64,000 nucleotides of DNA from Acidimicrobiales bacterium (GTDB lineage: Bacteria; Actinomycetota; Acidimicrobiia; Acidimicrobiales; MedAcidi-G1): positions 19,651-83,650 of the forward strand of contig JAKURV010000005.1 in the NCBI GenBank assembly GCA_022452035.1. Direction: 5' to 3'. Shown piece by piece: positions 4,403 to 58,232 of the stretch. The position numbers and the translations under genes were made by a program. Every line of letters begins with the position of its first letter. Positions within the stretch are counted from its first letter, which is position 1. The notes beneath the pieces were generated by a model. It made no database searches and had not been told where the DNA came from. It was given only the letters and a program-made list of their open reading frames with translations.

Positions 4403-4415
4403 CGGTCCGACCCAA

Positions 4416-9476: not shown

Positions 9477-9696
9477 GCAACCTCTCCTTGTTGTGTAACA
9501 CACATAGAGACATAGTGGGACACCCCGACACATCCCCTACAACTGCGGCAGTGTATCAGGGTGACCTGTGTAACGAGACGGGCCACAAGGGATCCGGGAG
9601 ACCACTCTTTATCGGTCCCGGCCCGATATCCGGTTACCGTCGAAGGTCGGGCCGCAAGCCGTCGACCCGGTCACGTTGATCACGGGGAGAACCAGG

Positions 9697-15064: not shown

Positions 15065-15853
15065 TCAGGAGCCCTGCCAGTGGGGGTCCCGCTTCTCGAC
15101 GAAAGCTTGCAGTCCCTCCTCCGCATCCTCCGAAGCCAGCATGCGTTCGTAGGCCTCCAGATCGCCCGACCGGAGGTGGGCAAACGCCTCTTCCAGGGAG
15201 AGGTGGCGGGTGGCCCGGTCGATGGCCAACACCGCCTCCACGGCCAGCGGGGCGGAAGCAGAAATCCGACCGGCTAACTCGAGAGCCGCCGAGCGGAGGT
15301 CGGCCACCGGCACCACCCGATTGACGAGGCCCCACCGTTCGGCCTCCCGGGCATCCAGGCGTCGCCCGCCTATGAGCACCTCGGTGGCCACCGCTGGCGG
15401 CAAAATACGGGGCAGCCGGACCGCTCCCGTGTCGGGGATGATTCCCAAGCCGGCTTCGGGAAGAAAAAACTCGGCGTGCTCGGCGGCCACCACGAACTCG
15501 GCGGCCAGGGCGATCTCGAAGCCGCCACCTACGGCTAGGCCGTTCACTGCACACACCACCGGTTTGTTCCTTCGGGGTAACTCGCCAAAGCCGCCGAAGC
15601 CGCCTTCGCCGTAGTCGGCCTCGAACTCCTCGCCGTCCGCCGCCGCGCCGAGGTCCCAACCAGCCGAGAAGAACCGGTCACCGGCCCCCGTGAACACGGC
15701 GACCCTCAGCGACGGGTCATCCCTGAACCCGGCGAACACTTGTCCCAGCTCCCGGCTCGTGGCGGCGTCGATGGCGTTGGCCTTCGGACGGTCTAGGACC
15801 ACCTCCAGTACCCCGCCGTTTACCGTGGTCCGGACCGCCGCCCCGTCGCTCAT
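15065..15853 (-). CDS. enoyl-CoA hydratase (CaiD/BcoD-like; candidate crotonobetainyl-CoA hydratase)
   Basis: VVLDRPKANAID...VFTGAGDRFFSAGWDL...VNGLAVGGGFEIALA. The specific role is inferred from context with carnitine genes. Confidence 0.75.
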   Translation of the reverse strand: MSDGAAVRTTVNGGVLEVVLDRPKANAIDAATSRELGQVFAGFRDDPSLRVAVFTGAGDRFFSAGWDLGAAADGEEFEADYGEGGFGGFGELPRRNKPVVCAVNGLAVGGGFEIALAAEFVVAAEHAEFFLPEAGLGIIPDTGAVRLPRILPPAVATEVLIGGRRLDAREAERWGLVNRVVPVADLRSAALELAGRISASAPLAVEAVLAIDRATRHLSLEEAFAHLRSGDLEAYERMLASEDAEEGLQAFVEKRDPHWQGS

Positions 15854-17904: not shown

Positions 17905-17924
17905 GGCTGGCCCTCCCCGTCCGG

Positions 17925-19085
17925 TCAGCCGCCCAGCGGGCGGAGCATCTCACGGCTCACGATGTGCCGCTGGATCTCACTGGTGCCGTCCCAGATCCGG
18001 TCCACCCGGGCATCGCGCCAGATCCGCTCCAGGGGAAGCTCGTCCATCAGGCCCATACCGCCCAGGATCTGGATGGCCTCGTCGGACACGAACTGGATCA
18101 TCTCGGTGGACGAGAGCTTGGCCATCGCTGCGTCGCCGTCCGACATGACACCGCGGTCCATGAGCCAGGCCGCCCGGTAGGTCATCAGCTCGGCCTCCAC
18201 CATGCGGGTCCGCATGTCGGCCAGCTTGAACGAGACCCCCTGAAACTTGCCGATCTTCTGGCCGAACTGTTCCCGTGAAGCCGCCCATTCCAGGGCCACG
18301 GACAGGGCCCGGTCGGCCCGACCCAGGCAGACGGCGGCCACCTGGAGCCGGGTGGCCCCCAGCCACTCGTTGGCCACCTCGAAGCCCCGGTGCTCCTCCC
18401 CGAGGACCTTGGAAGCCGGCACCCGACAGTCGTCAAAGTTCAGGATCAGGTTGTGGTAGCCGCGGTTGGAGACCGAGTTGTAGCCCGGCGCCACCTCCAG
18501 GCCCGGGGTGTCGTGGTCGACCAGGAACGAGGTGATGAGCTTTTTGGGGCCCCGAGGGGTGTCCTCTTCCCCGGTGGCCGCGAACAGGATCGTGTAGTCG
18601 GCTAGGTCGGCGTGGCTGATGAAGTGCTTGGTGCCGTTGACGACGTAGTCGTCGCCATCCCGGACGGCCCTGCAGGACATGCCCCGGACGTCCGAACCGG
18701 CTCCCGGCTCACTCATGGCCAGACAGTCCACCCGCTCGCCCCGGATGGTTGGTAGTAGGTATTCCTCGACTTGGTCCCCAGTGCAGGCCAGGAGGATGTT
18801 GGAAGGACGGGCCACCACGTAGTGCAGGGCGTACTGAGTCCAGCCGAACGCCCGGTCCACCAGAGCCATGGTCAGGTTGTCAAGCCCCCCGCCACCAAAC
18901 TCGGCCGGCATGTTGGCTGCGTAGATCCCCGCCTCCAGGGAGCGGTCTCGGATCCGGGCCACCAGGTCGGGCGACACGTCGCCTTGTCGCTCCACCTCCT
19001 CCTCATGGGGAACTAACTCGCGTTCGACGAAGGTCCGGACGGTGTCCACCACCATCTCCTGCTCGTTGGTCAGGGCGAAGTCCAT
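17925..19085 (-). CDS. acyl-CoA dehydrogenase (CaiA/BcoC-like by context)
   Basis: 386 aa ACAD (MSEPGAGSDVRG, VNGTKHFIS, RIWDGTSEIQRHIV). Confidence 0.8.
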   Translation of the reverse strand: MDFALTNEQEMVVDTVRTFVERELVPHEEEVERQGDVSPDLVARIRDRSLEAGIYAANMPAEFGGGGLDNLTMALVDRAFGWTQYALHYVVARPSNILLACTGDQVEEYLLPTIRGERVDCLAMSEPGAGSDVRGMSCRAVRDGDDYVVNGTKHFISHADLADYTILFAATGEEDTPRGPKKLITSFLVDHDTPGLEVAPGYNSVSNRGYHNLILNFDDCRVPASKVLGEEHRGFEVANEWLGATRLQVAAVCLGRADRALSVALEWAASREQFGQKIGKFQGVSFKLADMRTRMVEAELMTYRAAWLMDRGVMSDGDAAMAKLSSTEMIQFVSDEAIQILGGMGLMDELPLERIWRDARVDRIWDGTSEIQRHIVSREMLRPLGG

Positions 19086-19112
19086 GGTCAGCTCCGAGGA
19101 TCGTCGATCGGA

Positions 19113-20597
19113 TCAGGTCAGGCCCATGACCTGACCCACCTGGGGCGGGACGGGCAGATCGGCGTGGGCTTTGGCGATGGCGGCCAGCGCAGCCGCCGGA
19201 CCGGGAAGAAGGGGAGCCGTAGATCCGGCCCTGGTGTCCACGTGCAGCAGCATCTGCTCGGTGGTGCACAGCAGCTCACCGGTGGTGGCGTGCTCCATGG
19301 CATGGAAGAAGTGGAGCCGCTTGGCGTCCACGCCTAAAACCTGGGTGGTGAACCGGAGTGGATCGGCCAGTGAGGCCTCTCGCACGTAATTCAGGTGGGT
19401 CTCCACAGTGAAGAAAGTGTGGCCGGCCGACCGGTAGTCCTCGTCGACGCCCACATATCGGAAGAGCTTGTCGCTGGCCCACCCAAAAGCGGTCAGGAAC
19501 GCCCACTCAGACATGTGGCCGTTGTAGTCCACCCAGTCAGGCTCGACGGTCGTCTCGTACAGGGTCAGCGGGGCGGCCACCGGGTCACCCGCCGACCACT
19601 GGGCCGGGACGCCGGCCTCGTGGATTCGGGCCTCCCGTTCGGCCACCAGCCGTCCGGCCCCCAGGCCCAGCGGACGCAACGATCGCATGACGTTGACCAG
19701 GTAGTCGTCGCGGAGCCGCTCGAGCTCAGCCATGGTCCGGCCCTCGGCCTGCTCCTCGCAGCCGGCGGCCATCACCTCGATGAGGTCCTCGGTCAAGTCC
19801 GGGGCCTCCAGCTTCGTCCACGGCAACTTCAGGGCCGGGCCGAACTGGCCGAGCATGTGGCGCATGCCCTCTTCACCGCCCGCCAGGTGGAAGGTGAGGT
19901 TGGTCCCCATGCCGGCCCACCTCAGGCCCGGGCCGTAGTGCACCGCCTCGTCCAGCTCTCGCGTGGTGGCCACACCGTCGTTGACCAGGTGCAGGATCTC
20001 CCGCCACAGGGCCTCCTGGAGCCGGTCCGAGAGGTAGCCCTCGATCTCGGTTCGAACGAGCAGCGGATGCATGACCAGGTCGTCGTAGTGGGTCAGGGCC
20101 GCATCCACCGCTTCGGTCGATGTCTGGCGACCGGCTACCACCTCAACTAGCGGCAGCAGGTACACGGGGTTGAACGGGTGTCCGATGAGCACCCGCTCTG
20201 GGTGTCGGCAGCCCTCCTGGAGCCGGGTGGGTAGGAGCCCAGACGAACTGGAAGCGATGACCACCTCGGGGCCGGCTACCCCGGCCAGGGCCTGCAGCAG
20301 GGGACGCTTGACGTCCTCGTCTTCCGGGGCGCTCTCCTGGATCCAGTCGACCCGCCCCGCTAGGTCATCGGCCGTCGCCGCCCACGCGAGCTGGCTCCGG
20401 TCGGCCCCCGGGAACAACCCCAGCCTGGTGGCCGACGGCCAGGCCCGATCCACGGTGGCCCGTAGTCGTTCCTCAGCACCCGGTGCCGGGTCCCAGGCCA
20501 CCACGGCGTGGCCCCGGGCCAGCGCCCGGACAGCCCAGCCGGCCCCGATAACACCGGTGCCCACCACTCCGATGGTGCGCGGTGCGGTTCCTGCCAC
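19113..20597 (-). CDS. lcdH: L-carnitine 3-dehydrogenase fused to a C-terminal hotdog thioesterase domain
   Basis: IGVVGTGVIGAGWAVRALARGHAVVAWDPAPGAE matches the carnitine dehydrogenase N-terminus from memory. The C-terminal ~150 aa (VDYNGHMSEW...FFTVETHLNYVREA) form a 4HBT-type thioesterase. Confidence 0.8.
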   Translation of the reverse strand: MAGTAPRTIGVVGTGVIGAGWAVRALARGHAVVAWDPAPGAEERLRATVDRAWPSATRLGLFPGADRSQLAWAATADDLAGRVDWIQESAPEDEDVKRPLLQALAGVAGPEVVIASSSSGLLPTRLQEGCRHPERVLIGHPFNPVYLLPLVEVVAGRQTSTEAVDAALTHYDDLVMHPLLVRTEIEGYLSDRLQEALWREILHLVNDGVATTRELDEAVHYGPGLRWAGMGTNLTFHLAGGEEGMRHMLGQFGPALKLPWTKLEAPDLTEDLIEVMAAGCEEQAEGRTMAELERLRDDYLVNVMRSLRPLGLGAGRLVAEREARIHEAGVPAQWSAGDPVAAPLTLYETTVEPDWVDYNGHMSEWAFLTAFGWASDKLFRYVGVDEDYRSAGHTFFTVETHLNYVREASLADPLRFTTQVLGVDAKRLHFFHAMEHATTGELLCTTEQMLLHVDTRAGSTAPLLPGPAAALAAIAKAHADLPVPPQVGQVMGLT

Positions 20598-20626
20598 AAT
20601 CCCTCCCCGGGCGGTCGGTACCTGAC

Positions 20627-21520
20627 TCAGCCGAGCTTCAAGGTTTGGCGGGCGTCGGTCGTGGTCTGGATCCGGGCACCCATCAGTTCCACGATCCGGA
20701 CCGCCTTCTCGACCAACTGGGCGTTGGTGGCCAGCACCCCCCGCTCTAGGTAGAGGTTGTCCTCCAAGCCCACGCGCACGTGGCCGCCCAGCATCACCGA
20801 CTGGGCCGCCATCGGCATCTGCATGGCCCCGAGACCGAATGAGGTGAACTCGGCCTCGTCGGGAAGTCGGTTGACCATGGCCTGCAGGATCCCCACGTCC
20901 AGTGGCGTGCCGTAGGGGATGGACAGGCAGAGTTGGATCCAGTACGGGGCGTCGATGAGACCCTCAGCGATCATGGTCTCGGCGAACCACAGGTTGCCGG
21001 TGTCAAAGACCTCCAGCTCAGGTCGCACCCCGAGTTCGCGGACCCGCTGGGCCATGATGCGCAGCATCGATGGGGTCGAGACGTAGACCTCGTTGTCATC
21101 ACCGAAGTTCAGTGACCCGCAGTCCATGGAGCAGATGTCGGGCCGGATGGCCTCCACATGGGCCAGTCGCTCGGCGCCCCCGACCAGGTCGGTCCCTGGC
21201 TGCCAGGACATCGGGTCGTCATCGGGCCCGACGTTGAGGTCCCCCCCCATCCCAGCGGTCAGGTTGACCACGACGTCATCGTTCTTCTCCCGGATGCGCT
21301 CTACCACCTCCTGGTAGTAGGCCACGGTCCGGGTCCCCCGGCCGGTCTCCGGCTCACGGACGTGGCAGTGCACGATGGCTGCACCAGCCGAGGCGGCATC
21401 CAGGGCCGAGTTGGCAATCTGGGCCGGGGTCACTGGAACGTGCTCGCTGCGTCCGGCGGTGTCGCCGGCACCGGTTACGGCACACGAGATGATCACGTCG
21501 CGGTTCATGGATCGGGTCAT
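20627..21520 (-). CDS. beta-keto acid cleavage enzyme (BKACE/DUF849); candidate dehydrocarnitine cleavage enzyme
   Basis: VIISCAVTGAGDT...VPVTPAQIA...AAIVHCHVREPETG, typical of the 3-keto-5-aminohexanoate cleavage family. It lies adjacent to the carnitine dehydrogenase gene. Confidence 0.8.
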   Translation of the reverse strand: MTRSMNRDVIISCAVTGAGDTAGRSEHVPVTPAQIANSALDAASAGAAIVHCHVREPETGRGTRTVAYYQEVVERIREKNDDVVVNLTAGMGGDLNVGPDDDPMSWQPGTDLVGGAERLAHVEAIRPDICSMDCGSLNFGDDNEVYVSTPSMLRIMAQRVRELGVRPELEVFDTGNLWFAETMIAEGLIDAPYWIQLCLSIPYGTPLDVGILQAMVNRLPDEAEFTSFGLGAMQMPMAAQSVMLGGHVRVGLEDNLYLERGVLATNAQLVEKAVRIVELMGARIQTTTDARQTLKLG

Positions 21521-31495: not shown

Positions 31496-32260
31496 TCAGC
31501 CGGTGTGGCCTAGGGCGACGGAGATCGTCGCCGCAGAGGACCGGACCTGCTCGCCAATAATGTCGCGCAGCGTGTCGTCCGGGAACCGGTAGCTGGGACC
31601 GTGGCTGTGCAGGGCACCGGCCACGACCCCGGCGGCGTTGAACAATGGGGCGGCCACCGAGTTGATGCCCTCGGAAAACTCCTCCTCCATCCAGACCACC
31701 CCGTCCTCCCTGACCTGCTGCAGGCGCTCGCGGATCAGAGCGGGCCGGATGACCGACCGGGCTGTGTAACGGTCCAGTTTGCGGTCCAGGTAGCGGTCGA
31801 CGGCGTCGTCGGGCCAGTGAGCGAGGACCACCATGCCCGACGGAACAACGTGCATCGGCAGGCTGACTCCGGTCCAGTCCCGGACCTGGACCGGGTTCGC
31901 GCAGTCCACTTGGCCGATGTAGTGGACGTCGTAGCCGGCGGGGATGGACACGCCGACCGCCTCGGCCACCATCTCGACCAGCTCCACCAGGTGTGGCTGA
32001 GCGACGGCCAGGAGGCTCTGGGTCGGGTCGATGCTGGCCGCCATGGTCACGACGGACGGACCGATCCGGTAGCCGGTCCCGGAGTCGAGACGCTCCACGG
32101 CACCCAGGCCCTCGAGCGTTGAGAGCAGACGGGCCACCGTGCTCGTCGGGAGGTCGAGGCGACGGGAGAGTTCGCTGATTCCCGCCGGATCGTCGGCTAC
32201 CTCGCCCAGCAGTTGGAAGGCCCGGTCGATGCTCTGCACGCTCTGCATGGGATCCCACAT
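31496..32260 (-). CDS. IclR family transcriptional regulator
   Basis: SIDRAFQLLGEVADDPAGISELSRRLDLPTSTVARLLSTLEGLGAVER (wHTH) plus an IclR effector domain. Start trimmed to ATG 32260 (or 32248). Confidence 0.85.
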   Translation of the reverse strand: MWDPMQSVQSIDRAFQLLGEVADDPAGISELSRRLDLPTSTVARLLSTLEGLGAVERLDSGTGYRIGPSVVTMAASIDPTQSLLAVAQPHLVELVEMVAEAVGVSIPAGYDVHYIGQVDCANPVQVRDWTGVSLPMHVVPSGMVVLAHWPDDAVDRYLDRKLDRYTARSVIRPALIRERLQQVREDGVVWMEEEFSEGINSVAAPLFNAAGVVAGALHSHGPSYRFPDDTLRDIIGEQVRSSAATISVALGHTG

Positions 32261-32299
32261 GTCCTTCCAGGCCGGTATCGCTCGAGCAGAACACACCTG

Positions 32300-32314
32300 T
32301 CCCACAGTGTGGGA
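32300..32314. promoter_or_regulatory. perfect palindrome TCCCACA-G-TGTGGGA; candidate operator
   Basis: Read directly in the IclR/corrinoid-protein divergent intergenic region. Confidence 0.55.
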
Positions 32315-32376
32315 AGGCCTTCCCAAACCGTGGAACAACTCTTTCGCCAGTGCTAGTCTTCCCATTATACAGGAAC

Positions 32377-32393
32377 TTCCCACATTGTGGGAA
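32377..32393. promoter_or_regulatory. perfect palindrome TTCCCACA-T-TGTGGGAA; candidate operator
   Basis: Read directly, 61 nt upstream of ATG 32454. Degenerate TTCCCA-containing copies occur at ~32320-32335 and ~32359-32375. Confidence 0.55.
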
Positions 32394-32453
32394 ACGGCAC
32401 CCAAGGCTGACCCGGGCCATGACCGTGGCCCCCGATCCGCAACGGAGCGCATC

Positions 32454-33158
32454 ATGGCCGAAGAGAACCCCGTCGACGAAGAGATCGATCTGGCGAGCCT
32501 CAGCGACGAGGACCTAACCGCCCAGATGCACGATGACCTCTATGACGGCCTGGCCGACGAGATCGTCGACGGCACCAACATCCTCCTCGACCGGGGTTGG
32601 GCCGCCGACCGTGTACTGAACGATGCCCTGGTTGCGGGCATGCGGATCGTAGGCATCGACTTTCGCGATGGCATCCTCTTCGTTCCTGAGGTGCTGCTGG
32701 CCGCCAACGCCATGAAGGCCGGCATGGCCATCCTCCGGCCACTGCTAGCCGAGACGGGGGCCGAGCCCATCGGGAAGGTGGTCATCGGCACCGTCAAGGG
32801 CGACATCCACGACATCGGCAAAAACCTGGTCGCCATGATGCTCGAGGGTGCGGGCTTCGAGGTCATCAACCTCGGCATCAACACCGACGTCGAGGAGTTC
32901 CTCGGGGCCCTGGACGAGCACAAGCCGGACATCCTCGGGATGTCGGCCCTGCTGACCACCACCATGCCCTACATGAAGGTCGTGATCGACACCCTCCAGG
33001 AGAAGAGCCTCCGGGAGGAGTACATCGTGATAGTGGGCGGGGCTCCCCTGAACGAAGAGTTCGGCGAGGCCATCGGAGCCGACGCGTACTGCCGCGATGC
33101 GGCAGTCGCCTCCGAGACAGCTTCGCGGCTGGTGGCCGAGCGGCGCAGCGCGGCCTGA
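32454..33158 (+). CDS. corrinoid (B12)-binding protein of a methyltransferase system
   Basis: Cap helix region followed by VVIGTVKGDIHDIGKNLV (DxHxxG) and GMSALLTTTM. Trimmed from the 339-aa track ORF to ATG 32454. Confidence 0.85.
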   Translation: MAEENPVDEEIDLASLSDEDLTAQMHDDLYDGLADEIVDGTNILLDRGWAADRVLNDALVAGMRIVGIDFRDGILFVPEVLLAANAMKAGMAILRPLLAETGAEPIGKVVIGTVKGDIHDIGKNLVAMMLEGAGFEVINLGINTDVEEFLGALDEHKPDILGMSALLTTTMPYMKVVIDTLQEKSLREEYIVIVGGAPLNEEFGEAIGADAYCRDAAVASETASRLVAERRSAA

Positions 33159-33164
33159 CCAACC

Positions 33165-33863
33165 ATGAACGAGCCTTCCGGCGCGCCGGAGGCGTCCAGC
33201 GGGCGGACCCTGGTTGTCGCCTGTGGGGCGCTTGCCCGTGAGTTGCTCCAGGTAGTGGAGGCGAACGGCCTCGACCACGTCGACGTCGAGTGCCTGCCCG
33301 CCTCCTACCACAACACCCCCGAGGTGATCCCCGACCGGGTGGCTGAACGCGTCCGGGGTGCCGCCGACCGCTACGACAGGGTCTTCGTTGGCTATGGGGA
33401 CTGCGGGACGGGCGGCCGCCTCGACGCCATGTGTGACGAGCTCGGGGTCGAGCGCCTGCCCGGTGACCACTGCTACGAGTTCCTCACCGGAAGCGCCGAG
33501 TTCGCCGACCTCCATGCCGAGGAGTTGGGGACCTTCTTCCTGACCGACTACCTGGTTAAGCACTTCGACCGTCTCGTCGTTCGGGCCTTCTGGCTGGACA
33601 CCCACCCCGAGATGCGAGATGCCGTGTTCGGCAACTACCGCCGGCTGGTCTACCTGTCACAAAGTGACGACCCCGATCTCGTGGAGCGCGCCCGGGACGC
33701 CGCTGACCGCTTGGGACTCACCTTCGAGCACCGGCGCACAGGCCTCGGGGAACTGGAGACCAGCATCGTTTCGTTGGGTCGAGGCATCGGTCAGGATCCC
33801 GGCCGATGTCTCGACGAAAGTGCCGTGGCCTCCACTGGACCCGCCCCAGCCGGAACCCGCTGA
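33165..33863 (+). CDS. DUF1638 domain-containing protein
   Basis: LVVACGALARELL...LPASYHNTPE...VFVGYGDCGTGG pattern recalled as DUF1638. Location inside a corrinoid methyltransferase operon is typical for that family. Confidence 0.6.
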   Translation: MNEPSGAPEASSGRTLVVACGALARELLQVVEANGLDHVDVECLPASYHNTPEVIPDRVAERVRGAADRYDRVFVGYGDCGTGGRLDAMCDELGVERLPGDHCYEFLTGSAEFADLHAEELGTFFLTDYLVKHFDRLVVRAFWLDTHPEMRDAVFGNYRRLVYLSQSDDPDLVERARDAADRLGLTFEHRRTGLGELETSIVSLGRGIGQDPGRCLDESAVASTGPAPAGTR

Positions 33864-33866
33864 GCT

Positions 33867-34175
33867 ATGGCCGCACAGCTCGTCACCATCTACTGGCGCG
33901 ACATCCCGGCCCAGGTCACAGCCCAACAGGGGAGGAACAGGGAGAAGGCGCTGCTGGGCGCCCGCTTTCAGCACGCCATCGACCGAGCGGCCATGGTGGC
34001 CGGAATGGACGACACCGACTCGTACGTGGCGCAGTGGCGTCGCGAGGCCGTCGAATGCCTCGCCGATCTGGCGCCTGCCGCGGCCGTCGAGGCGGCTCGC
34101 CTCGACGAGTCCTACCCCGACGACCGGCTGGAGCGACTCGTGCGATCCGGCGGTGTAGAGGAACAAGAGGAATAG
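33867..34175 (+). CDS. small conserved protein (resembles the family annotated 'virulence factor', function unknown)
   Basis: The N-terminal TIYWRDIPAQVTAQQGR motif is recalled from small ORFs in MttB/corrinoid clusters. Acidic C-terminus. Coding-like composition. Confidence 0.5.
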   Translation: MAAQLVTIYWRDIPAQVTAQQGRNREKALLGARFQHAIDRAAMVAGMDDTDSYVAQWRREAVECLADLAPAAAVEAARLDESYPDDRLERLVRSGGVEEQEE

Positions 34176-34242
34176 CCAGGAACATCCCGACCGTGGGACC
34201 GTCACCGCTGACGGTCCCCCGACCAGAGAGACCGATCCAGAG

Positions 34243-35142
34243 ATGACCGACACCATCCTCAGTTCTGCCACCAGGGAGGTGGCCATCGGCTTCGGCCGGC
34301 CCTTCGTCATGATCGGCGAGCGGATCAACCCCACGGGGCGCCAGAAGCTGGCCGACGAGATGAAGGCCGGGGACTTCAGCCGGGTTGAGGCTGACGCCAT
34401 CGCTCAGGTGGAGGCCGGTGCCCACATGCTGGACGTCAACGCGGGAATTCCGCTGGCCGACGAACCAGCCCTGCTGGCCCGGGCCATCCAGCTTGTGCAG
34501 TCGGTGACCGACGTGCCTTTGAGTATCGACTCGTCGATCATCGAGGCCCTGGAGGCCGGCATCGCCGTGTACCAGGGCAAGCCCCTGGTCAACTCGGTGA
34601 CCGGTGAGGACGAGGTGCTGGAGCGGGTCCTGCCGCTGGTGGCGAGGGCTGGTGCTGCCGTGGTGGCCATCTCCAACGACGACTCCGGGATCTCCGAGGA
34701 CCCCGATGTGCGCTTCGAGGTGGCCCGCAAGATCGTGCAGCGGGCCGCCGACTACGGAATCCCGGCCGCCGACGTGGTGGTGGACCCCCTGGTCATGCCG
34801 ATAGGCGCCATGGGATCGGCCGGCCAACAGGTCTTCACGCTGGTCCGACGCCTCCGCGAAGAGCTCAGGGTCAACACGACCTGCGGTGCGTCCAACGTGA
34901 GCTTCGGGCTCCCCAACCGGCACGCCGTAACCGGCACGTTCCTGGCCATGTCGATCAGCCACGGCATGACGTCGGCCATCATGAACCCCCTGCACGGTGA
35001 GGTGCGGGTGCGGGTTCAGGCCGCCGACATTCTCACCGGCGCCGACACCAACTGCGCCTCCTGGATTAGCCACCACCGGGACCCCGAAGCCGTCGGCACC
35101 CGCGAGCGCCGGAGCGGTCGCCGCGCCCGGGCGCAAGCCTGA
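34243..35142 (+). CDS. methylcorrinoid:tetrahydrofolate methyltransferase (pterin-binding, MtgA/MeTr-like)
   Basis: FVMIGERINPTGRQKLADEM...GAHMLDVNAG...PLSIDSS...LVNSV...TCGASNVSFGLPNR, the pterin-binding barrel signature. Confidence 0.8.
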   Translation: MTDTILSSATREVAIGFGRPFVMIGERINPTGRQKLADEMKAGDFSRVEADAIAQVEAGAHMLDVNAGIPLADEPALLARAIQLVQSVTDVPLSIDSSIIEALEAGIAVYQGKPLVNSVTGEDEVLERVLPLVARAGAAVVAISNDDSGISEDPDVRFEVARKIVQRAADYGIPAADVVVDPLVMPIGAMGSAGQQVFTLVRRLREELRVNTTCGASNVSFGLPNRHAVTGTFLAMSISHGMTSAIMNPLHGEVRVRVQAADILTGADTNCASWISHHRDPEAVGTRERRSGRRARAQA

Positions 35143-35163
35143 ACTACCGATCGGCATGATCCC

Positions 35164-37215
35164 ATGACCGGAGCCGACGACCACCTCGTCGTCTTCACGC
35201 CCTCGGGTCTAAGGGGATCGTTCGCCGCCGGTACCACCCTGCTGGACGCCGCCCGTCGGCTGGGGGTGGATCTCGACTCGGTCTGCGGAGGCCGCGGGAT
35301 CTGCGGGCGCTGCCAGGTGACGCCCACCTTCGGTGAGTTTGCTAAGCACGGCATCACCGTCGTGGAGGGCCACGTGTCGCCCCGCGGAGCTGTCGAGCAG
35401 GACTATCGGGGCCGTCGGCCCCTGACGGAATCCCGACGGTTGGGTTGTGCCGCCGCTGTATCCGGCGACTTGGTGGTCGACGTCCCTGCCGAGAGCCAGG
35501 TCCATCGGCAGGTCGTCCGCAAGGATGTGGACCTGGGCGACCTGGCACTGGACCCGGTTCTGGTCCTCCGCCTGGTCGAGGTCGCCCCGCCGGCCGGAGC
35601 CATCGGGGACCGTCCTGATCGCCGACTGCTCGACGCCCTAGCCGACCAGTGGGGCCTCGGAGGCCTCACTCTCGACGACAGGGTGGCCGACAGCCTGGCC
35701 GACGGGTCGACCGATGGACCTGGCACGGTGACAGTGGCTATCCGGGATGGCCACCGCGTGGTAGCCGTCTGGCCGGGCCTGCGGGACCGTGCCCTGGGCG
35801 TGGCCGTGGACGTGGGCTCCACGACGATCGCCGGCCACCTCTGCGACCTGGCAACCGGCGCCGTACTGGCTACAGCAGGAACCATGAACCCGCAGATCCG
35901 GTTCGGCGAGGACCTCATGAGCCGGGTCTCCTACGTGATGATGAACCCGGGTGGCGAGGCCGAGCTGACCGCCGCCGTCCGCGGCGCCCTGGACGACCTG
36001 CTGGCCGACCTCTGCCTCCAGGGGGAAGCCGAGCGAGATGAGGTGCTGGAGATGGTGCTGGTCGGCAACCCGATCATGCACCACCTGTTCTTGGGCCTGG
36101 ACCCGACGCCGCTGGGCCAGGCCCCGTTCACTCTCGCTGTGGAGAACGCCCTCGACGTCCCGGCGGCCGACCTCAATCTGGAGGCGCACGCCTGTACCCG
36201 GGTCCACGTCCTGCCGTGTATCGCCGGACACGTGGGGGCCGATACGGCCGCTGTAGTCCTGGCCTCACGCCCCCACACGGCCGACGACGTCCGCCTGGTC
36301 GTCGACGTCGGAACCAACGCTGAGATTGTCCTGGCCGGCAACGGGCGGATACTGGCTGCCTCTAGCCCCACCGGCCCGGCCTTCGAGGGGGCCCAGGTCA
36401 GCGCTGGTCAACGGGCTACCCCGGGAGCCATCGAGCGGGTCCGTATCGACCCGGATACCGGCGAACCCCGGTTCCGGGTAATCGGCGCTGAGCCGTGGTC
36501 CGACGAGCCGGGCTTTGACGAGGCGGTAGCCGACACCGGGGTGACTGGGATCTGCGGGTCCGGGATTATCGAGGTGGTGGCCGAGCTGTGGCTGGCCGGA
36601 CTCATGAATGCCGACGGTGTGATCGGCGGCCCGGGTACCAGGCCGTCTCGACGTCTGGTTGCCGACGGGCGGACGCTCTCCTATGTCCTGCACGACCCGG
36701 ACGGCGGCGGCGACGACAGCGGGATCCTTGTGACACAGAACGACGTCCGGGCCATCCAGTTGGCCAAAGCCGCCCTCTACGCCGGCATCCGGCTCCTGAT
36801 GGACCACCTTGAGGTGGACGAGGTAGACCAGATCAGCCTGGCCGGGGCTTTCGGCAGCCACATCGACACCGTCCGCGCCACCGTCCTCGGCCTCGTACCG
36901 GACTGCGAGCCCGACCGGGTAGCCAGCATCGGCAACGCGGCAGGCGCCGGGGCGGTCATCGCCCTGCTCTCGGCCGGAGCCCGGACCGAAATCCAGGAGG
37001 TGGTGGACCGTATCGAGAAGATCGAAACAGCCCTCGAGCCCTCCTTCCAGGCACACTTCGTGGATGCCATGGCCATCCCCCACCGCACCGCCGACTACCC
37101 CCGGCTGTCGACGTGCATCACGCTCCCGCAACGACCCGCCATATCCACAACCGGACCTGAACGGTCCGGACGACGCCGTCGCAGAGCCGCCACGGGAGAG
37201 GAATCCAGCGCATGA
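35164..37215 (+). CDS. reductive activator of corrinoid enzymes (RACo type: 2Fe-2S ferredoxin + ASKHA ATPase/DUF4445)
   Basis: N-terminal CGGRGICGRCQV plant-type ferredoxin. Central and C-terminal DVGSTTIAGH / DVGTNAEIV / GNAAGAGA ASKHA motifs. Confidence 0.8.
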   Translation: MTGADDHLVVFTPSGLRGSFAAGTTLLDAARRLGVDLDSVCGGRGICGRCQVTPTFGEFAKHGITVVEGHVSPRGAVEQDYRGRRPLTESRRLGCAAAVSGDLVVDVPAESQVHRQVVRKDVDLGDLALDPVLVLRLVEVAPPAGAIGDRPDRRLLDALADQWGLGGLTLDDRVADSLADGSTDGPGTVTVAIRDGHRVVAVWPGLRDRALGVAVDVGSTTIAGHLCDLATGAVLATAGTMNPQIRFGEDLMSRVSYVMMNPGGEAELTAAVRGALDDLLADLCLQGEAERDEVLEMVLVGNPIMHHLFLGLDPTPLGQAPFTLAVENALDVPAADLNLEAHACTRVHVLPCIAGHVGADTAAVVLASRPHTADDVRLVVDVGTNAEIVLAGNGRILAASSPTGPAFEGAQVSAGQRATPGAIERVRIDPDTGEPRFRVIGAEPWSDEPGFDEAVADTGVTGICGSGIIEVVAELWLAGLMNADGVIGGPGTRPSRRLVADGRTLSYVLHDPDGGGDDSGILVTQNDVRAIQLAKAALYAGIRLLMDHLEVDEVDQISLAGAFGSHIDTVRATVLGLVPDCEPDRVASIGNAAGAGAVIALLSAGARTEIQEVVDRIEKIETALEPSFQAHFVDAMAIPHRTADYPRLSTCITLPQRPAISTTGPERSGRRRRRAATGEESSA

Positions 37216-38753
37216 GCAATGCACCACGAGGCCGCCGTAGCGGCGGTAGCGCAGCCCGACAGGCACTCAGGGCGGAGGCCTCGACCGAGGTCCGTACGTT
37301 CCTGACCCGGACCATGGCCCCGTTCGAGGTGCTCTCCGTCGAGGGACTCGAGACCATCGAGCACAATGCCGACACGATCCTCGCCGAGATGGGCATCGAC
37401 TTCCGCGACTACCCGTCGGCCCTCACCCTGCTGGCCGACGCCGGGGCCGACGTGGACGGGGAACGGGTGCGGTTCCCCCGCGGCATGTGTCGACAGATCA
37501 TCCAGTCTTCGGCACCAGCGACCTACACCCAGCACGCCCGCAACCCGGTCCGTAACGTCCAGGTGGGGGGTGACGCCACCGTCCTCGTACCCGCCTACGG
37601 TTCACCGTTCGTCCACGACATCGACGAGGGTCGCCGGTACGCCACTCTGGAGGACTTCCGCAACTTCGTGAAACTGGCCTACCTAAGCCCGGGCCTCCAC
37701 CACTCGGGCGGCACGATCGTCGAGCCGGTGGACGTCCCGGTCTCCAAGCGGCACCTAGACATGGTGTACTCCCACCTCCGTTACAGCGATAAGCCGTTCA
37801 TGGGCTCGGTCACCGCGGCCGAGAGAGCCCAGGACTCCGTCGACCTGGCCGGGTTCGTGTTCGGCGAAGAGTTCGTCCGCCAGAACACCGTGATGACGAG
37901 CCTCATCAACGCCTCCTCGCCCATGTCCTGGGACGCCACCATGCTGGGAGCCGCTGAGACGTACGCCCGATCCAACCAGGCCACCATGATCAGCCCCTTC
38001 ATCCTGGCCGGAGCCATGGCACCCGTGACGGTGGCCGGCGTTGCGGCACAGACCCTGGCCGAGGCCCTGGCGGGCATGACGTTCGTCCAGTTGGTGAACC
38101 CCGGGGCGCCGATGGTGTTCGGTTCGTTCGCAAGCTCGATGTCGATGCAGACCGGTGCCCCTACGTTCGGAACGCCGGAACCGGCCCTGGTCCTGTACAC
38201 GGTCGCAGCCCTGGCCCGGCGCCTCGGTGTGCCGTTCCGTTCGGGGGGCAACCTCTGCGCCTCCAAGATCCCCGACGCCCAGGCCGCCGCGGAGTCCATG
38301 GCCACCTTCCTCCCCTCCCTGCTTGCCGGGGTGAACTTCATGCTCCACTCAGCGGGCTGGCTGGAGGGCGGCTTGGCCATGGGCTACGAGAAGTTCATCA
38401 TTGACGCAGACCAGTGCAACCTGGCCGCCACCTTCGTCAACGGTGTTGACCTCTCGGAGAACGGGCAGGCCATGAGTGCCATCGGCGAGGTGAGCCCCGG
38501 GGGGCACTTCCTGGGCACGGCCCACACGCTGGCCAACTTCGAGACGGCCTTCGCCCGATCCGAGGTGGCCAACAACGACTCCTTCGAACAGTGGGAGGAA
38601 GACGGGAGCCTCGACGCCGCCCAACGGGCCAACGGCATCTGGAAGAAGATGCTGGACGACTATGAGGCTCCGCCACTTGACGAGTCGGCCGACGAGGCGA
38701 TGCTGGACTTCATCGCCCGCCGCAAGGAGGTCATCCCCGACGAGTTCGGGTGA
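37212..38753 (+). CDS. MttB-family (trimethylamine methyltransferase superfamily) quaternary-amine:corrinoid methyltransferase, non-pyrrolysine
   Basis: 513 aa uninterrupted (no in-frame TAG). Length and layout match MttB/MtgB-type proteins. ATGA overlap with the activase gene. Confidence 0.8.
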   Translation: MSNAPRGRRSGGSAARQALRAEASTEVRTFLTRTMAPFEVLSVEGLETIEHNADTILAEMGIDFRDYPSALTLLADAGADVDGERVRFPRGMCRQIIQSSAPATYTQHARNPVRNVQVGGDATVLVPAYGSPFVHDIDEGRRYATLEDFRNFVKLAYLSPGLHHSGGTIVEPVDVPVSKRHLDMVYSHLRYSDKPFMGSVTAAERAQDSVDLAGFVFGEEFVRQNTVMTSLINASSPMSWDATMLGAAETYARSNQATMISPFILAGAMAPVTVAGVAAQTLAEALAGMTFVQLVNPGAPMVFGSFASSMSMQTGAPTFGTPEPALVLYTVAALARRLGVPFRSGGNLCASKIPDAQAAAESMATFLPSLLAGVNFMLHSAGWLEGGLAMGYEKFIIDADQCNLAATFVNGVDLSENGQAMSAIGEVSPGGHFLGTAHTLANFETAFARSEVANNDSFEQWEEDGSLDAAQRANGIWKKMLDDYEAPPLDESADEAMLDFIARRKEVIPDEFG

Positions 38754-38948: not shown

Positions 38949-40646
38949 ATGTCGTTCCCCTCCGACCTAGAAATTGCCCGAGGCGCCGAACTGCGCCCCC
39001 TCACCGACATCGCGTCGGAAGCCGGAATCCCAACCGACTGCCTAGAGCCCTACGGCGAGGGCGCGGCCAAGATCAAGTTGGACGCCATCGGACGGATGGC
39101 CGACCGCCCGAAGGCCCGGTACGTGGTCGTCTCAGCCATCACCCCCACACCCCTGGGCGAGGGCAAGACCACGACGACCGTCGGCCTCGGCCAAGGCTTC
39201 AGTCACATCGGGAAAAAGGCCACCATCGCCATCCGCCAGCCCTCGATGGGCCCGACCTTTGGGATCAAGGGTGGGGCGGCCGGCGGCGGCTACAGCCAGG
39301 TCGTACCCATGGAGCTGTTCAACCTCCACCTAACCGGAGACATGCACGCCGTCACGGCGGCCCACAACATGTGCTCGGCCATGCTCGACGCCCACCTGTT
39401 CCACGGCAACGAGCTGGGACTGGACCTCCACAACATCACGTGGCGGCGGGTCATGGACATCAACGAGCGGGCGCTGCGCAACATCGTCGTCGGCCTGGGC
39501 GGCCGGCTAGATGGCGTGCCCCGCGAAACCGGCTTTGACATCACCGCCGCCTCCGAGGTCATGGCGGCCCTCGCCCTGTGCACCTCGCTGGCCGACCTGC
39601 GCCAACGAATGGGCCGAATCGTCGTCGGCTACGACAAGGCGGGCACTCCGGTCACCGCCGAGGACCTCGGCGTAGCCGGCTCGATGACGGTCATCCTCAA
39701 GGAAGCCATCAAGCCCAACCTGATGCAGACCCTGGAGGGCACTCCCGCCCTGGTCCACTGCGGCCCGTTCGGCAACATCGCCACCGGCAACTCGTCGATC
39801 GTGGCCGACCAGATCGGCATCCACACCGGTGACTTCCTGCTCACCGAGGCGGGTTTCGGCGCCGACATGGGCGCCGAGCGGTTCTTCAACATCAAGTGCC
39901 GCTATTCGGGCATCGCCCCCGACGCCGCTGTTCTGGTAGCCACCGTCCGCGGCCTGAAAGCCCACTCCGGCAACCACAAGATCGTGGCCGGTAAGCCGCT
40001 TCCCGAGGCCCTCCTGGCCGAAAATCCCGACGAGGTGCACCAGGGAGGCGACAACCTCCGCAAGCAGCTGGAGAACATGCAGGTCCATGGGGTGTCTCCG
40101 GTAGTGGCCATCAACGTGTTCCCTGGCGACCACGACGTCGACATCAACGCCATCAAGGAGATCGCCGACGAGTTCAACGCCCGGTCGGCGATCACCACCC
40201 ACTTCGCCGACGGCGGGTCGGGAGCCGCCGAGCTGGCCGAGGCGGTCGCCGAGGCGGCCGACGAGCCCAGCGACTTCCAGGTCCTGTATCCGGACGAGAT
40301 GTCGCTCCGGGACAAGATCCGCACCGTGGCCGAGAAGGTCTACGGTGCCGACGGCGTAGATTTCTCGCCGCAGGCCAACAAGCAGATCGACACGTACGAG
40401 GCCAACGGCTTCGGCAACCTACCGGTGTGCATCGCCAAGACGCACTTATCGATCAGTTCGAACGCCGCCCTCAAGGGCGCCCCAACTGGGTGGACGCTCC
40501 CCGTCCGCGAAGTCCGGGCCTCAGTGGGCGCCGGCTTCGTGTACCCGATCTGCGGTGACATGCGTACGATGCCCGGGCTGGGCGCCCGGCCGGGCGCCAT
40601 GGGTATTGACATCGACGAGAACGGTGAGATTGTCGGCCTGAGTTGA
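38949..40646 (+). CDS. fhs: formate--tetrahydrofolate ligase
   Basis: ITPTPLGEGKTTTTVGL, GGAAGGGYSQVVPME, PALVHCGPFGNIA. Confidence 0.95.
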   Translation: MSFPSDLEIARGAELRPLTDIASEAGIPTDCLEPYGEGAAKIKLDAIGRMADRPKARYVVVSAITPTPLGEGKTTTTVGLGQGFSHIGKKATIAIRQPSMGPTFGIKGGAAGGGYSQVVPMELFNLHLTGDMHAVTAAHNMCSAMLDAHLFHGNELGLDLHNITWRRVMDINERALRNIVVGLGGRLDGVPRETGFDITAASEVMAALALCTSLADLRQRMGRIVVGYDKAGTPVTAEDLGVAGSMTVILKEAIKPNLMQTLEGTPALVHCGPFGNIATGNSSIVADQIGIHTGDFLLTEAGFGADMGAERFFNIKCRYSGIAPDAAVLVATVRGLKAHSGNHKIVAGKPLPEALLAENPDEVHQGGDNLRKQLENMQVHGVSPVVAINVFPGDHDVDINAIKEIADEFNARSAITTHFADGGSGAAELAEAVAEAADEPSDFQVLYPDEMSLRDKIRTVAEKVYGADGVDFSPQANKQIDTYEANGFGNLPVCIAKTHLSISSNAALKGAPTGWTLPVREVRASVGAGFVYPICGDMRTMPGLGARPGAMGIDIDENGEIVGLS

Positions 40647-41664: not shown

Positions 41665-43818
41665 ATGCCATCTGGCTCCTCTCATCCGCTCCTGCTCTCC
41701 CCCGTCCGGGTGGGCCCCCTGGAGTTACGGAACCGGATCGTCCTACCGGCCATGGACCAGAACGTCTGTAACGACGGGCTGGTCACTGATCGCCTGGTGG
41801 TCCACTACGAGGAACGGTCCCGGGGAGGAGCCGGCCTGCTTGTGCTGGAGACCTCAGCCGTTTCCTACCCCCACGGAGCCACAGCCCGTCACCAGCCCGC
41901 CCTGTCTCATGACGGTGTGATCCCCGGGCTGCGGCGCCTAGGCGAGGCCGTCCACGCCCACGGTTCGAAGCTCGTCGTCCAGGCCAACCACCACGGCCGC
42001 ATCTCTGGGGTGGACACGGCCGAGGACCGGCCCTGCCTGGTGCCCAGCCTCCCGCTTCCTGACACCGACCCGATGTCGATCATGGCCGATACGACCATGG
42101 ACGAGCTGGTGGCCATGTCAACCCTCACCGGCGGCAAGATGCCCACCTACGCCGAGGCCACGGTTGAGGACCTGTCTGACGTGGTGGAAAAGTTCGCCGA
42201 CGCTGCGGTCCGCGTCCAAGCTGCTGGCCTCGACGGCCTGGAAATCCACGCCGGCCACGGCTACCTCCTGGACACCTTCCTCTCACCGGCCTGGAATAAA
42301 CGGACCGACCGGTACGGCGGCTCCGAGGAGAACCGGGCCCGCCTACTGGTCGAGGTCGTGGAGGCCGTCCGCGCGCGTTGTGGTCCCGGCTTCGCCATCC
42401 TGGTCCGCCTCAACGGTCGGGATGACGCCCTCGAGGGCGGGATCACGCCCGACCTCGCTGCCCGGTACGCCGCTGTGGCCGCCAACGCCGGTGCCGACGC
42501 CATCCACGTCACCGCCTACTCGTCGGTCACTGGCGGCCCCGGATTTACCGAAGGGCCACTGCCGTGGCGTCCGTGCCAGTACGAGGAGTTGGCCCGGACG
42601 GTGAAAGCCGCCGTGGACGTCCCGGTCATCGCCGTCGGGCGCATCCGGCCCGACGACGGCGAGCGGATCCTGGCCGACGGGGGCGCCGATCTGATCGCCA
42701 TGGGCCGCCAGTTGTTGGCCGACCCGCACCTACCGAACCGGCTGGCCGAGGGTCGCCCCGACCTGGTCCGCCCGTGCATCAACTGCTTTGTTTGCGTAGC
42801 CCAGAACTTCTGGTCGGCGGCTCCGGTGTGCGCGGTGAACGCCCAGTTGGGCCACCAGGATTGGCCCAAGCCGACGCCCGCTGCCCCACCCCGCCACGTA
42901 GTGGTAGTGGGGGGCGGACCAGGGGGCATGGAGGCGGCCCGGGTGGCCGCCGAACGGGGCCACAGAGTGACCCTGCTGGAGAGGGCCAACCACCTCGGCG
43001 GCACGGCCCGCTTCTCGTCACTGACCACACCACTGAACGGCGACCTGGTCCGGTGGATGGCAGCCGCCCTGGCCGAGGCCGACGTAGAGGTACGCACCGC
43101 CACAACGGCCACGCCGACAATGGTCGCCGCGTTGCGCCCGGATGCCGTGGTGGTGGCCACCGGTGCCGTCCGGGACCGCCCAAACGTGCCCGGAGTTGAC
43201 CTGCCGCATGTGCTTTCCGGCGACGACCTGCGCAGCCTTCTGACCGGTGAGGGAGGGGCCACCGACCAGCGGTCAGGGCCGCTTGTGCGCCTCGCGCTGA
43301 CCGTCGCGCGGGCCCTGGGCATGACCACCGACATGGACCGGGTCCGCGCCCTGTCCCGCCGGTGGATGCCCATCGGGCGACGCGTCGTAGTAGTGGGTGG
43401 CGGGCTTGTGGGTACCGAGCTGGCCGAGTTCCTAGTCGAGCGAGGACGATCGGTGACCGTCCTAGAGGAGGGCGACGACCTGGCCACCGAGATGGCACAC
43501 CCCCGACGCTGGCGGGCCCTCCACGAAGCCCGAGCCCACGGCGTGGACTTCCGCACTGGGACCCGCCTGGTGGCCGTCACCGCCGATGAGGTAATCGCCC
43601 ACACCGCGGCAACCGACGAAAAGGATGGCGACGAGGTGCGCTTCGGCGCCGACAGCGTGCTGCTGGCCGGCAGCGTTCAGCCGGACTCTTCGCTGGCTGG
43701 GGCCATCCGGACCGGCATCGGCGGCGACGTCGAGGTCCACGTGGTGGGTGATGCCGGAACGGTCGGCTACATCGAGGGGGCCATCCGCTCCGGATACGAG
43801 GTGGGTGTCGGCCTGTAG
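41665..43818 (+). CDS. FadH/OYE-like flavoprotein (FMN TIM barrel + 4Fe-4S + FAD/NAD(P)-binding domains)
   Basis: LRNRIVLPAMD...HHGR (OYE), CINCFVC...C cluster motif, VVVVGGGPGGMEAA and VVVVGGGLVGTELAEF dinucleotide folds. There is no Cys at the TMADH covalent-FMN position. Confidence 0.75.
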   Translation: MPSGSSHPLLLSPVRVGPLELRNRIVLPAMDQNVCNDGLVTDRLVVHYEERSRGGAGLLVLETSAVSYPHGATARHQPALSHDGVIPGLRRLGEAVHAHGSKLVVQANHHGRISGVDTAEDRPCLVPSLPLPDTDPMSIMADTTMDELVAMSTLTGGKMPTYAEATVEDLSDVVEKFADAAVRVQAAGLDGLEIHAGHGYLLDTFLSPAWNKRTDRYGGSEENRARLLVEVVEAVRARCGPGFAILVRLNGRDDALEGGITPDLAARYAAVAANAGADAIHVTAYSSVTGGPGFTEGPLPWRPCQYEELARTVKAAVDVPVIAVGRIRPDDGERILADGGADLIAMGRQLLADPHLPNRLAEGRPDLVRPCINCFVCVAQNFWSAAPVCAVNAQLGHQDWPKPTPAAPPRHVVVVGGGPGGMEAARVAAERGHRVTLLERANHLGGTARFSSLTTPLNGDLVRWMAAALAEADVEVRTATTATPTMVAALRPDAVVVATGAVRDRPNVPGVDLPHVLSGDDLRSLLTGEGGATDQRSGPLVRLALTVARALGMTTDMDRVRALSRRWMPIGRRVVVVGGGLVGTELAEFLVERGRSVTVLEEGDDLATEMAHPRRWRALHEARAHGVDFRTGTRLVAVTADEVIAHTAATDEKDGDEVRFGADSVLLAGSVQPDSSLAGAIRTGIGGDVEVHVVGDAGTVGYIEGAIRSGYEVGVGL

Positions 43819-43880: not shown

Positions 43881-45104
<1,224 letters not shown>

Positions 45105-52734: not shown

Positions 52735-52800
52735 GCTCTCTCAGTTGTTGCGTCCAGGTCAGGTCGGAAGTGATTCGACCTAGAGGTGGTGCTGAATCTG

Positions 52801-53802: not shown

Positions 53803-53856
53803 CCGACTTTCCCCTTTCGTGTCTTTCCTCGCCGAACAGGCCGCCCAGCTCTCCGG

Positions 53857-55344: not shown

Positions 55345-55436
55345 GGTCTGGTGTCCGTTCGTGGTCGCCGTCCGACCGGTCAGACGGGCGTGGTGGGTCC
55401 TACAAGACGGGGTGGATGCCCGTCCGGGATTGTGTC

Positions 55437-56849: not shown

Positions 56850-56898
56850 GTGTTCCCCCTTAGGAGCCACGCCCCGCGGCCCTCTCTCGATCCAGGCA

Positions 56899-58188: not shown

Positions 58189-58232
58189 CGTCGACTCCCG
58201 TGTGGGATTGGTCTCTGGAGGGCGGTCGGCAC

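Follow-up and report, generated by a model that had tools for sequence, protein, structure and literature searches.

A window of 64,000 nucleotides from an Acidimicrobiales bacterium (contig JAKURV010000005.1 of assembly GCA_022452035.1), by which the whole analysed stretch is meant, was found to contain at positions 31496-38753 a compact gene cluster for a corrinoid-dependent methyltransferase system of the MttB superfamily. The cluster contained one gene for an IclR-family regulator on the minus strand followed by the presence of six close-set genes on the plus strand, which were identified by open reading frame (ORF) calls and by Pfam and NCBIfam matches (Table 1). The six genes were found to encode, in this order, a corrinoid protein (MtgC), a DUF1638 protein, a 102-aa PF13769 protein, a pterin-binding methyltransferase (MtgD), a RACo-type reductive activase, and a methyltransferase of the MttB superfamily, and the spacers between them were 6, 3, 67, 21, and -4 nt. 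The same seven genes had been listed in a preliminary description of the window, and their identity and positions were confirmed. The G+C content in 2-kb bins of the window was approximately 0.60-0.70, mostly 0.65-0.70, and the cluster lay within it without a compositional break.

Table 1. Positions of the genes and motifs of the cluster, of its neighbours in the window, and of related features on other loci (locus handle before the colon)
Feature	Position	Strand	Basis
IclR-family regulator	31496..32260 likely, ORF to 32455	-	HTH_IclR + IclR_C (Pfam)
Candidate IclR operators, two 17-bp palindromes	32299-32315 and 32377-32393	.	Motif scan
mtgC, corrinoid (cobalamin-binding) protein	32454..33158	+	B12-binding_2 (PF02607) + B12-binding (PF02310)
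DUF1638 protein	33165..33863	+	PF07796
102-aa protein, PF13769 'Virulence_fact'	33867..34175	+	Pfam E 9e-22
mtgD, pterin-binding methylcorrinoid:tetrahydrofolate methyltransferase	34243..35142	+	PF00809, NF005719
RACo/RamA-like ATP-dependent reductive activase, 2Fe-2S + ASKHA	35164..37215	+	Fer2, RACo_linker, Raco_middle, RACo_C_ter (Pfam)
mtgB-like non-pyrrolysine MttB-superfamily methyltransferase, 513 aa	37212..38753	+	PF06253
Formate-tetrahydrofolate ligase (FTHFS), proposed one-carbon (C1) exit step	38949..40646	+	NF010030, 797 bits (cut-off 652)
Methylene-tetrahydrofolate reductase (MTHFR), mycobacterial non-canonical type, 286 aa	40751..41611	+	PDB 7XG9 E 9.5e-35, weak PF02219
717-aa OYE/FMN + Pyr_redox flavoprotein	41665..43818	+	PDB comparison
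Cytochrome P450, CYP107-like	43881..45104	+	PF00067
Dimethylglycine oxidase/dehydrogenase homologue (DMGDH), 839 aa	27771-30290	-	DAO, FAO_M, GCV_T
ETF beta, beside the DMGDH homologue	26961-27728	-	
ETF alpha, beside the DMGDH homologue	25990-26964	-	
Carnitine to glycine betaine operon (BKACE, carnitine 3-dehydrogenase-thioesterase fusion, ACAD, ADP-forming acyl-CoA synthetase, ECH)	15065..21520	-	
NAD-linked formate dehydrogenase (Fe-S, NuoF-like, and molybdopterin subunits)	10360..14937	-	
OpuA/ProV-type ABC importer, CBS-domain ATPase	8256-9533	-	
OpuA/ProV-type ABC importer, 934-aa permease fusion	5455-8259	-	
Acyl-ACP-type di-iron desaturase	4416..5339		
TCCCACAnTGTGGGA copies	L023:11545-11559, L024:11458-11472, L030:11553-11567, L031:4609-4623		
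Second MttB, 510 aa	L093:1996-3528	+	

The proteins of the window were compared by tblastn with 80 related genomic loci, and the counts given below refer to the loci that had 6 kb or more of flanking sequence on each side. The conserved gene order was found to be DMGDH-(SDR)-IclR-MtgC-DUF1638-PF13769-MtgD-RACo-MttB-FTHFS-MTHFR-(OYE)-P450. The Acidimicrobiia (n = 21 loci) contained the core in 20 loci, IclR in 20, MTHFR in 19, DMGDH, FTHFS, and P450 in 17 each, and the OYE flavoprotein in 12, whereas the loci from other taxa (n = 18, mostly Gammaproteobacteria and Nitriliruptoraceae) contained the core, there defined as MtgC-DUF1638-MtgD-RACo beside MttB, in 12-13 loci and the P450 in none. Because the gene order recurred in 20 of the 21 Acidimicrobiia loci, the six-gene arrangement is a conserved operon and not a product of chance. 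Its synteny extended to approximately 20 species of marine Acidimicrobiales. The complete window was covered by contigs of 96-99.7% identity. The MttB protein was found to be 100% identical in metagenome-assembled genomes (MAGs) labelled 'Acidimicrobiales bin26s' and 'ALOHA_A2.5_66 ... Microtrichales-14', and the identical MttB sequence was indexed in 640 blocks of a metagenome assembly collection. The module was also found on a replicon of Paracoccus methylovorus and in a SAR92 MAG.

Orthologues of all six proteins were found in the cluster of S. meliloti (L089) to which Mausz et al. (PMC12478193) gave the name MtgBCDE, with identities of 63% for MtgD, 61% for MttB, 54% for RACo, 51% for the PF13769 protein, and 48% for the DUF1638 protein. 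MtgC was 73% identical to its counterpart in that cluster and 72-77% identical to gammaproteobacterial copies; its DxHxxG motif was found to read GDIHDIG, and its top NCBIfam model was MtgC_2 at 202 bits, under the cut-off of 370. MtgD scored 351 bits on NF005719 and thereby exceeded the cut-off of 259, and its relatives in the PDB were the MetH folate domain and MeTr/AcsE. The activase contained the full RACo architecture in four Pfam domains and was aligned over its full length with the RACo of C. hydrogenoformans (3ZYY, residues 7-641, E 3e-84), in agreement with the earlier assignment of a RACo-type activase.

The DUF1638 protein was found to contain invariant D79-C80-G-T-G-G, C90, and H102-C103-Y104 residues together with nearly invariant C20 and C43 residues, and such a set of Cys/His residues would be consistent with a site for a metal or a cofactor. 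Its AlphaFold model had a mean pLDDT of 72, and a Foldseek comparison of the model with the PDB gave no significant relative (best TM 0.28, E 2e-3). A corrinoid protein, a pterin-binding protein, a RamA-like protein, and a DUF1638 protein were all required for methionine synthesis in Phaeobacter inhibens (Price et al. 2018), and by analogy with these genetics the DUF1638 protein of the window would be an accessory for corrinoid enzyme activity. The PF13769 protein was present in 20 of the 21 Acidimicrobiia loci and in 9 of the 18 other loci, and was seen to accompany the module across phyla, in S. meliloti, SAR92, Nitriliruptoraceae, and Acidimicrobiia. The copy in the S. meliloti cluster was annotated as 'virulence factor', and the protein goes unmentioned in the 2025 description of MtgBCD (PMC12478193).

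The MttB protein matched PF06253 at 721 bits, and its ORF was found to be open throughout its 513 codons with no in-frame TAG, in accordance with the non-pyrrolysine type that had been assigned to it before. Among structures in the PDB, it matched 4YYC, which is the MttB of the S. meliloti cluster, at 679 bits (E 3.5e-203), the MtgB of D. hafniense at 399 bits (approximately 1e-118), and the pyrrolysine-containing MttB 7XCL at 108 bits, and its identity to D. hafniense MtgB was 41-45%. In a midpoint-rooted neighbour-joining tree, calculated with no bootstraps, the operon-linked MttB proteins grouped in a single clade with identities of 59% or more, and D. hafniense MtgB joined this clade and its sister paralogues of 50-56% identity ahead of the two most distant paralogue groups. 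With the Paracoccus orthologue as the starting sequence, a search for homologues recovered relatives from Paracoccus and Rhizobiales only, and a plasmid collection was found to contain unvalidated MttB paralogues only.

In D. hafniense MtgB, glycine betaine is contacted by Y97 and F356 through cation-pi interaction and by R312 and H348 at the carboxylate, and conservation of the Y97/F356 aromatic pair does not extend to MtcB, MtpB, MthB, or MtyB (Picking et al., JBC 2026, PMC13080624). The alignment of the window MttB to D. hafniense MtgB, a pocket comparison that had been proposed in the preliminary description, gave a divided result. Three of the four contacts were found to be kept, namely Y129 for Y97, R343 for R312, and H379 for H348, while the fourth, F356, was aligned with glycine G387. 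The motif around the lost F356 was AGW383LEGGL in the window MttB as against AGILQYF in D. hafniense, and W383 may serve as a substitute for F356. Among the distant paralogues examined, three were found to have S, T, or A at the position of Y97.

One such paralogue was found on a contig (L093) which is 99.0% identical to positions 1-9563 of the window and reaches 8.46 kb further to the left. This second MttB of 510 aa is 39% identical to the operon MttB, contains A at the position of Y129, and lies approximately 4.9-6.5 kb to the left of position 1. Its neighbours were an enolase-superfamily (MR_MLE) protein, a 723-aa DAO-FAO_M-GCV_T protein, and an M24 protein, the last of which had DddP as the best NCBIfam model (449 bits, cut-off 600). 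The presence of a second MttB in a different context suggests that a single MtgC/MtgD/RACo core is shared by more than one MttB, in the manner of E. limosum and Ruegeria, and it also suggests a likely division of substrates in which the operon copy would take glycine betaine.

The operon is interpreted as a probable aerobic system of the MtgBCD type, in which cobalamin-dependent methyl transfer from glycine betaine to tetrahydrofolate would take place in a marine Microtrichales (Acidimicrobiia) host. Glycine betaine is favoured as the most likely substrate because the conserved neighbours handle dimethylglycine, the product of glycine betaine demethylation. The DMGDH homologue was found to have the dimethylglycine oxidase of Arthrobacter as its best PDB match (1PJ5, E 4.8e-133), above the mammalian dimethylglycine dehydrogenases, and to be placed beside the ETF genes. 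The carnitine 3-dehydrogenase and BKACE genes (19113..21520) were found approximately 10 kb from the mtg operon, the NCBIfam match NF005716 being 521 bits with a cut-off of 592, and the CoA enzymes of the same gene group could plausibly take gamma-butyrobetaine to glycine betaine as well. Since this nearby operon corresponds to a known route by which carnitine is turned into glycine betaine, direct demethylation of carnitine or gamma-butyrobetaine by the MttB would be redundant. Glycine betaine, proline betaine, carnitine, and gamma-butyrobetaine had earlier been regarded as plausible alike, and with neighbours that process dimethylglycine and carnitine genes that make glycine betaine this equal standing is no longer maintained.

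Under the glycine betaine assignment, the substrate would be imported, or the carnitine dehydrogenase-thioesterase and BKACE would produce it from carnitine. MtgB, the 513-aa MttB, would bind glycine betaine and hand one N-methyl group, the first to be removed, to Co(I) on MtgC, followed by the transfer of this methyl group from MtgC to tetrahydrofolate by MtgD. The RACo/RamA-like activase would re-reduce Co(II) with ATP, helped by the DUF1638 protein and perhaps by the PF13769 protein. The methyl-tetrahydrofolate would be oxidised by the adjoining non-canonical MTHFR, a direction which we infer, and FTHFS would release the carbon as formate and formate dehydrogenase as CO2. The dimethylglycine product would be demethylated by the neighbouring ETF-linked DMGDH, and the divergent IclR would govern the operon through the two 17-bp palindromes.

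Several points were found to weigh against this assignment. The glycine at the position of F356 was shared by all 83 operon-type sequences and by 4YYC, and the W-x-x-G-G motif that replaces Y355/F356 was common to paralogues down to 36% identity; as the paralogues carry it too, the motif is not diagnostic of substrate. The identities of 41-45% and 61% do not fix the substrate either, because MtcB and MtyB differ in substrate preference at 53% identity (PMC8604678). No published assay was found for the S. meliloti MttB protein (4YYC), and the MttB comparisons covered D. hafniense MtgB as a validated member but not the genetically or proteomically validated aerobic MtgB proteins (SPO2108 and SPO2134 of R. 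pomeroyi, and PGA1_RS07270) or the MtpB, MtcB, MtyB, and MthB of E. limosum. No cobalamin synthesis or uptake genes (cob, btu) were found among the called genes of approximately 72 kb (the window and its 8.5-kb left extension), and an Rfam scan of the window gave no B12 riboswitch and no other family. The loss of the F356 equivalent and the divergence of close MttB proteins in substrate are also what would be expected if the same relay acted on another quaternary amine (proline betaine, hydroxyproline betaine, carnitine, gamma-butyrobetaine, choline/phosphocholine, or an uncharacterised one) with the DMGDH belonging to a separate pathway. This possibility, which we consider rather unlikely, is further favoured by the downstream 717-aa FMN/FAD flavoprotein, whose broad family includes amine dehydrogenases, and by the ABC importer, whose type carries proline betaine elsewhere according to annotation. 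However, the 717-aa protein was found to be nearest to enoyl/dienoyl-CoA reductases and not to TMADH and was absent from 9 of the 21 clusters, D. hafniense MtgB hardly uses proline betaine (PMC13080624), and the possibility is opposed also by the conserved DMGDH in 17 of the 21 loci, by the carnitine genes that yield glycine betaine, and by the three retained contacts, of which Y97 was lost in the distant paralogues mentioned above.

It is also conceivable, at a clearly lower probability, that, as in Phaeobacter inhibens, the MtgC-MtgD-RACo-DUF1638 core functions mainly as a split cobalamin-dependent methionine synthase, with the MttB as an accessory methyl-donor module. The requirement of the four protein types for methionine synthesis (Price et al. 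2018) and the dual function of MtgC and MtgD shown by Mausz et al. (PMC12478193) speak for such a role, but no homocysteine S-methyltransferase (PF02574, MtgE) was found among the called genes of the same 72 kb, the operon is joined to catabolic C1-oxidation genes and has its own regulator, and in Ruegeria pomeroyi grown on glycine betaine MtgB, MtgC, and MtgD were up and MtgE was down (PMC12478193). A dual role in methionine synthesis may nevertheless be present and is compatible with the glycine betaine reading. A true trimethylamine methyltransferase system is implied by the source annotations 'trimethylamine--corrinoid protein Co-methyltransferase' and by TIGR02369, the model for the pyrrolysine-type trimethylamine methyltransferase, which was the sole NCBIfam match of the MttB. 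This annotation was rejected and is regarded as highly improbable, the codon for pyrrolysine (UAG) being absent from the frame and the TIGR02369 score of 263 bits being under the cut-off of 525. The match to the pyrrolysine-containing 7XCL (108 bits as against 399 for MtgB and 679 for 4YYC) and the retained carboxylate-binding R and H, which are expected for an acidic quaternary amine, argue in the same direction.

A wider proposal can be put forward only tentatively, and as a whole it is thought to be improbable rather than probable. One MtgC/MtgD/RACo/DUF1638/PF13769 core would be an oxygen-tolerant hub shared by several MttB paralogues in the abundant marine Acidimicrobiia, including the paralogue outside the window, with the P450 and the PF13769 protein adding chemistry or cofactor protection absent from the proteobacterial systems, and with the operon MttB or a paralogue acting on a substrate new to the superfamily.

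The ORF of the IclR regulator was found to extend beyond the probable gene; because the helix-turn-helix begins only at ORF residue 75, the true start is probably M66 at position 32260, which gives a protein of 254 aa, and gene callers gave 250-290 aa on near-identical contigs. The IclR-mtgC intergenic region contained two palindromes of 17 bp, TTCCCACAnTGTGGGAA, together with two degenerate copies. At up to 3 mismatches, TTCCCACAnTGTGGGAA had 2 matches in the 64 kb as against 0.23 expected, both of them in this intergenic region, and the palindrome was kept at the equivalent place in loci L002-L006, L009, L011, L014, L016, and L020. One of the palindromes was found to overlap the -35 element of a promoter-like site on the minus strand (32393..32364), which faces the IclR gene. 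Control of the operon by IclR, as previously proposed, is therefore plausible through these candidate palindromes, the confinement and conservation of which were observed, while the binding itself is a prediction. In four more distant Acidimicrobiales, the 15-bp core of the palindrome, TCCCACAnTGTGGGA, was found directly 3' of the MttB gene and before FTHFS. The position of TCCCACAnTGTGGGA ahead of FTHFS suggests that in those Acidimicrobiales the C1 genes, too, are under the control of the regulator.

Downstream of the operon, the MTHFR gave no tblastn match in the S. meliloti or Paracoccus clusters, whose type is MetF/MetF2, and it is proposed to oxidise methyl-tetrahydrofolate like MetF2 in Ruegeria. 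The 717-aa flavoprotein had 2-naphthoyl-CoA reductase and FadH as its best PDB matches, above TMADH and histamine dehydrogenase. Its candidature as an StcD-like N-methylproline demethylase, which would have pointed to proline betaine, was downgraded on account of these reductase relatives and of its absence from part of the clusters. The P450 was found to be without an adjacent ferredoxin partner, and no function of this P450 in the breakdown of betaines is known. The P450, the di-iron desaturase, and the DMGDH homologue beside ETF bore out the aerobic-type context that had been described earlier.

Upstream of the cluster, the betaine and carnitine link of the earlier description was likewise recovered in the form of the carnitine dehydrogenase and BKACE genes and the OpuA/ProV-type ABC system. 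The ABC ATPase was found to be 51% identical to a 'glycine betaine/L-proline' ABC ATPase of S. meliloti, and the 934-aa permease contained a Pfam domain only at residues 139-299, followed by a C-terminal part of approximately 630 residues which was unmatched and contained no OpuAC. As the permease gave no OpuAC match, it is the adjacent CBS-domain ATPase on which the label of betaine importer depends. The molybdopterin subunit of the formate dehydrogenase (13033-14937, minus strand) was found to contain an in-frame TGA at 14698-14700 within SCNRT-TGA-HAPSVVGL, which makes gene callers split the subunit into ORFs of 79 aa and 523 aa. This TGA is probably a selenocysteine codon because it stands at the catalytic selenocysteine/cysteine position of FdhA-type enzymes. 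The genes at 21706-25948 (plus strand), which stand between the carnitine and the ETF/DMGDH genes, were found to encode a 2-hydroxyacid dehydrogenase, a DUF1015 protein, and a PabB-PabC-like fusion (chorismate-binding and aminotransferase class IV), and may provide the C1 pathway with folate or serine. At 51242-59000 (minus strand), a dihydropyrimidinase-like amidohydrolase, a CN_hydrolase, a class III aminotransferase, an aldehyde dehydrogenase, and a luciferase-like oxidoreductase were found in a cluster which resembles reductive pyrimidine or beta-amino-acid catabolism and adjoins an NMT1-type ABC transporter.

If the glycine betaine assignment is correct, marine Microtrichales/Acidimicrobiales, including MedAcidi groups and deep-water populations of Station ALOHA, would demethylate glycine betaine by a B12 route, the taxonomic range of the pathway would be widened, and a Gram-positive cobalamin sink would be added to the ocean. 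The compact operon with its accessory genes, regulator, and candidate operator is a handy set for heterologous reconstitution and for work on the roles of the DUF1638 and PF13769 proteins. The current picture of how MtgBCD systems work is left unchanged by it.

Among the known systems, the aerobic MtgBCD(E) systems of Ruegeria, Phaeobacter, and S. meliloti were found to be alike in the six protein types, in the nearby MTHFR and dimethylglycine-demethylation genes, and in the aerobic host. Mausz et al. (PNAS 2025, PMC12478193) demonstrated aerobic demethylation of glycine betaine by MtgBCD through genetics and proteomics in Ruegeria pomeroyi, where two PF06253 proteins, a RamA-like protein, a DUF1638 protein, and a MetF paralogue all rose on glycine betaine (PMC12478193), and a double mutant of P. 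inhibens without mtgB1 and gbcAB did not grow on glycine betaine (bioRxiv 10.64898/2025.12.19.695462). The view that characterised non-pyrrolysine MttB proteins come solely from anaerobes, held in the preliminary description, is outdated by these Ruegeria and Phaeobacter systems, and an aerobic context is no surprise because aerobic MtgBCD systems were described in 2025. In many marine bacteria, the mtg genes are co-located with dimethylglycine/sarcosine and C1-oxidation genes (PMC12478193), and the window was likewise found to contain DMGDH and ETF for dimethylglycine demethylation and FTHFS, MTHFR, and formate dehydrogenase for tetrahydrofolate-linked C1 oxidation; approximately 5% of the marine mtgC reads are from Actinomycetota (PMC12478193). 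Unlike the proteobacterial systems, the window system was found in an actinobacterial host (Acidimicrobiia), with all six genes in one tight operon with FTHFS, a non-canonical MTHFR in place of a MetF2 paralogue, a divergent IclR gene accompanied by palindromes of its own, the P450 as a conserved neighbour, and no MtgE nearby.

The anaerobic MtgB-MtgC-MtgA system of D. hafniense (2QNE, 9YCE) shares the MttB-family TIM-barrel methyltransferase and the relay logic, whereas the window system differs from it in the glycine at the position of F356, in the type of MtgC, in the MeTr/MetH-like tetrahydrofolate methyltransferase, and in the aerobic physiology. In E. limosum, one corrinoid protein and one tetrahydrofolate methyltransferase (MtqC/MtqA) serve several MttB proteins (MtpB, MtcB, MtyB, and MthB), in which the window system is probably alike, but E. 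limosum is an anaerobic acetogen and its substrates are proline betaine, carnitine, gamma-butyrobetaine, and phosphocholine. The trimethylamine system MttB/MttC/RamA of methanogens belongs to the same superfamily and shares the corrinoid protein and the ATP-dependent reductive activation, whereas it contains pyrrolysine, a coenzyme M acceptor, and a RamA with 4Fe-4S clusters, and the match of the window MttB to this type was the 108 bits given above. The system of the window is an actinobacterial, fully operonic instance of the already described aerobic MtgBCD systems.

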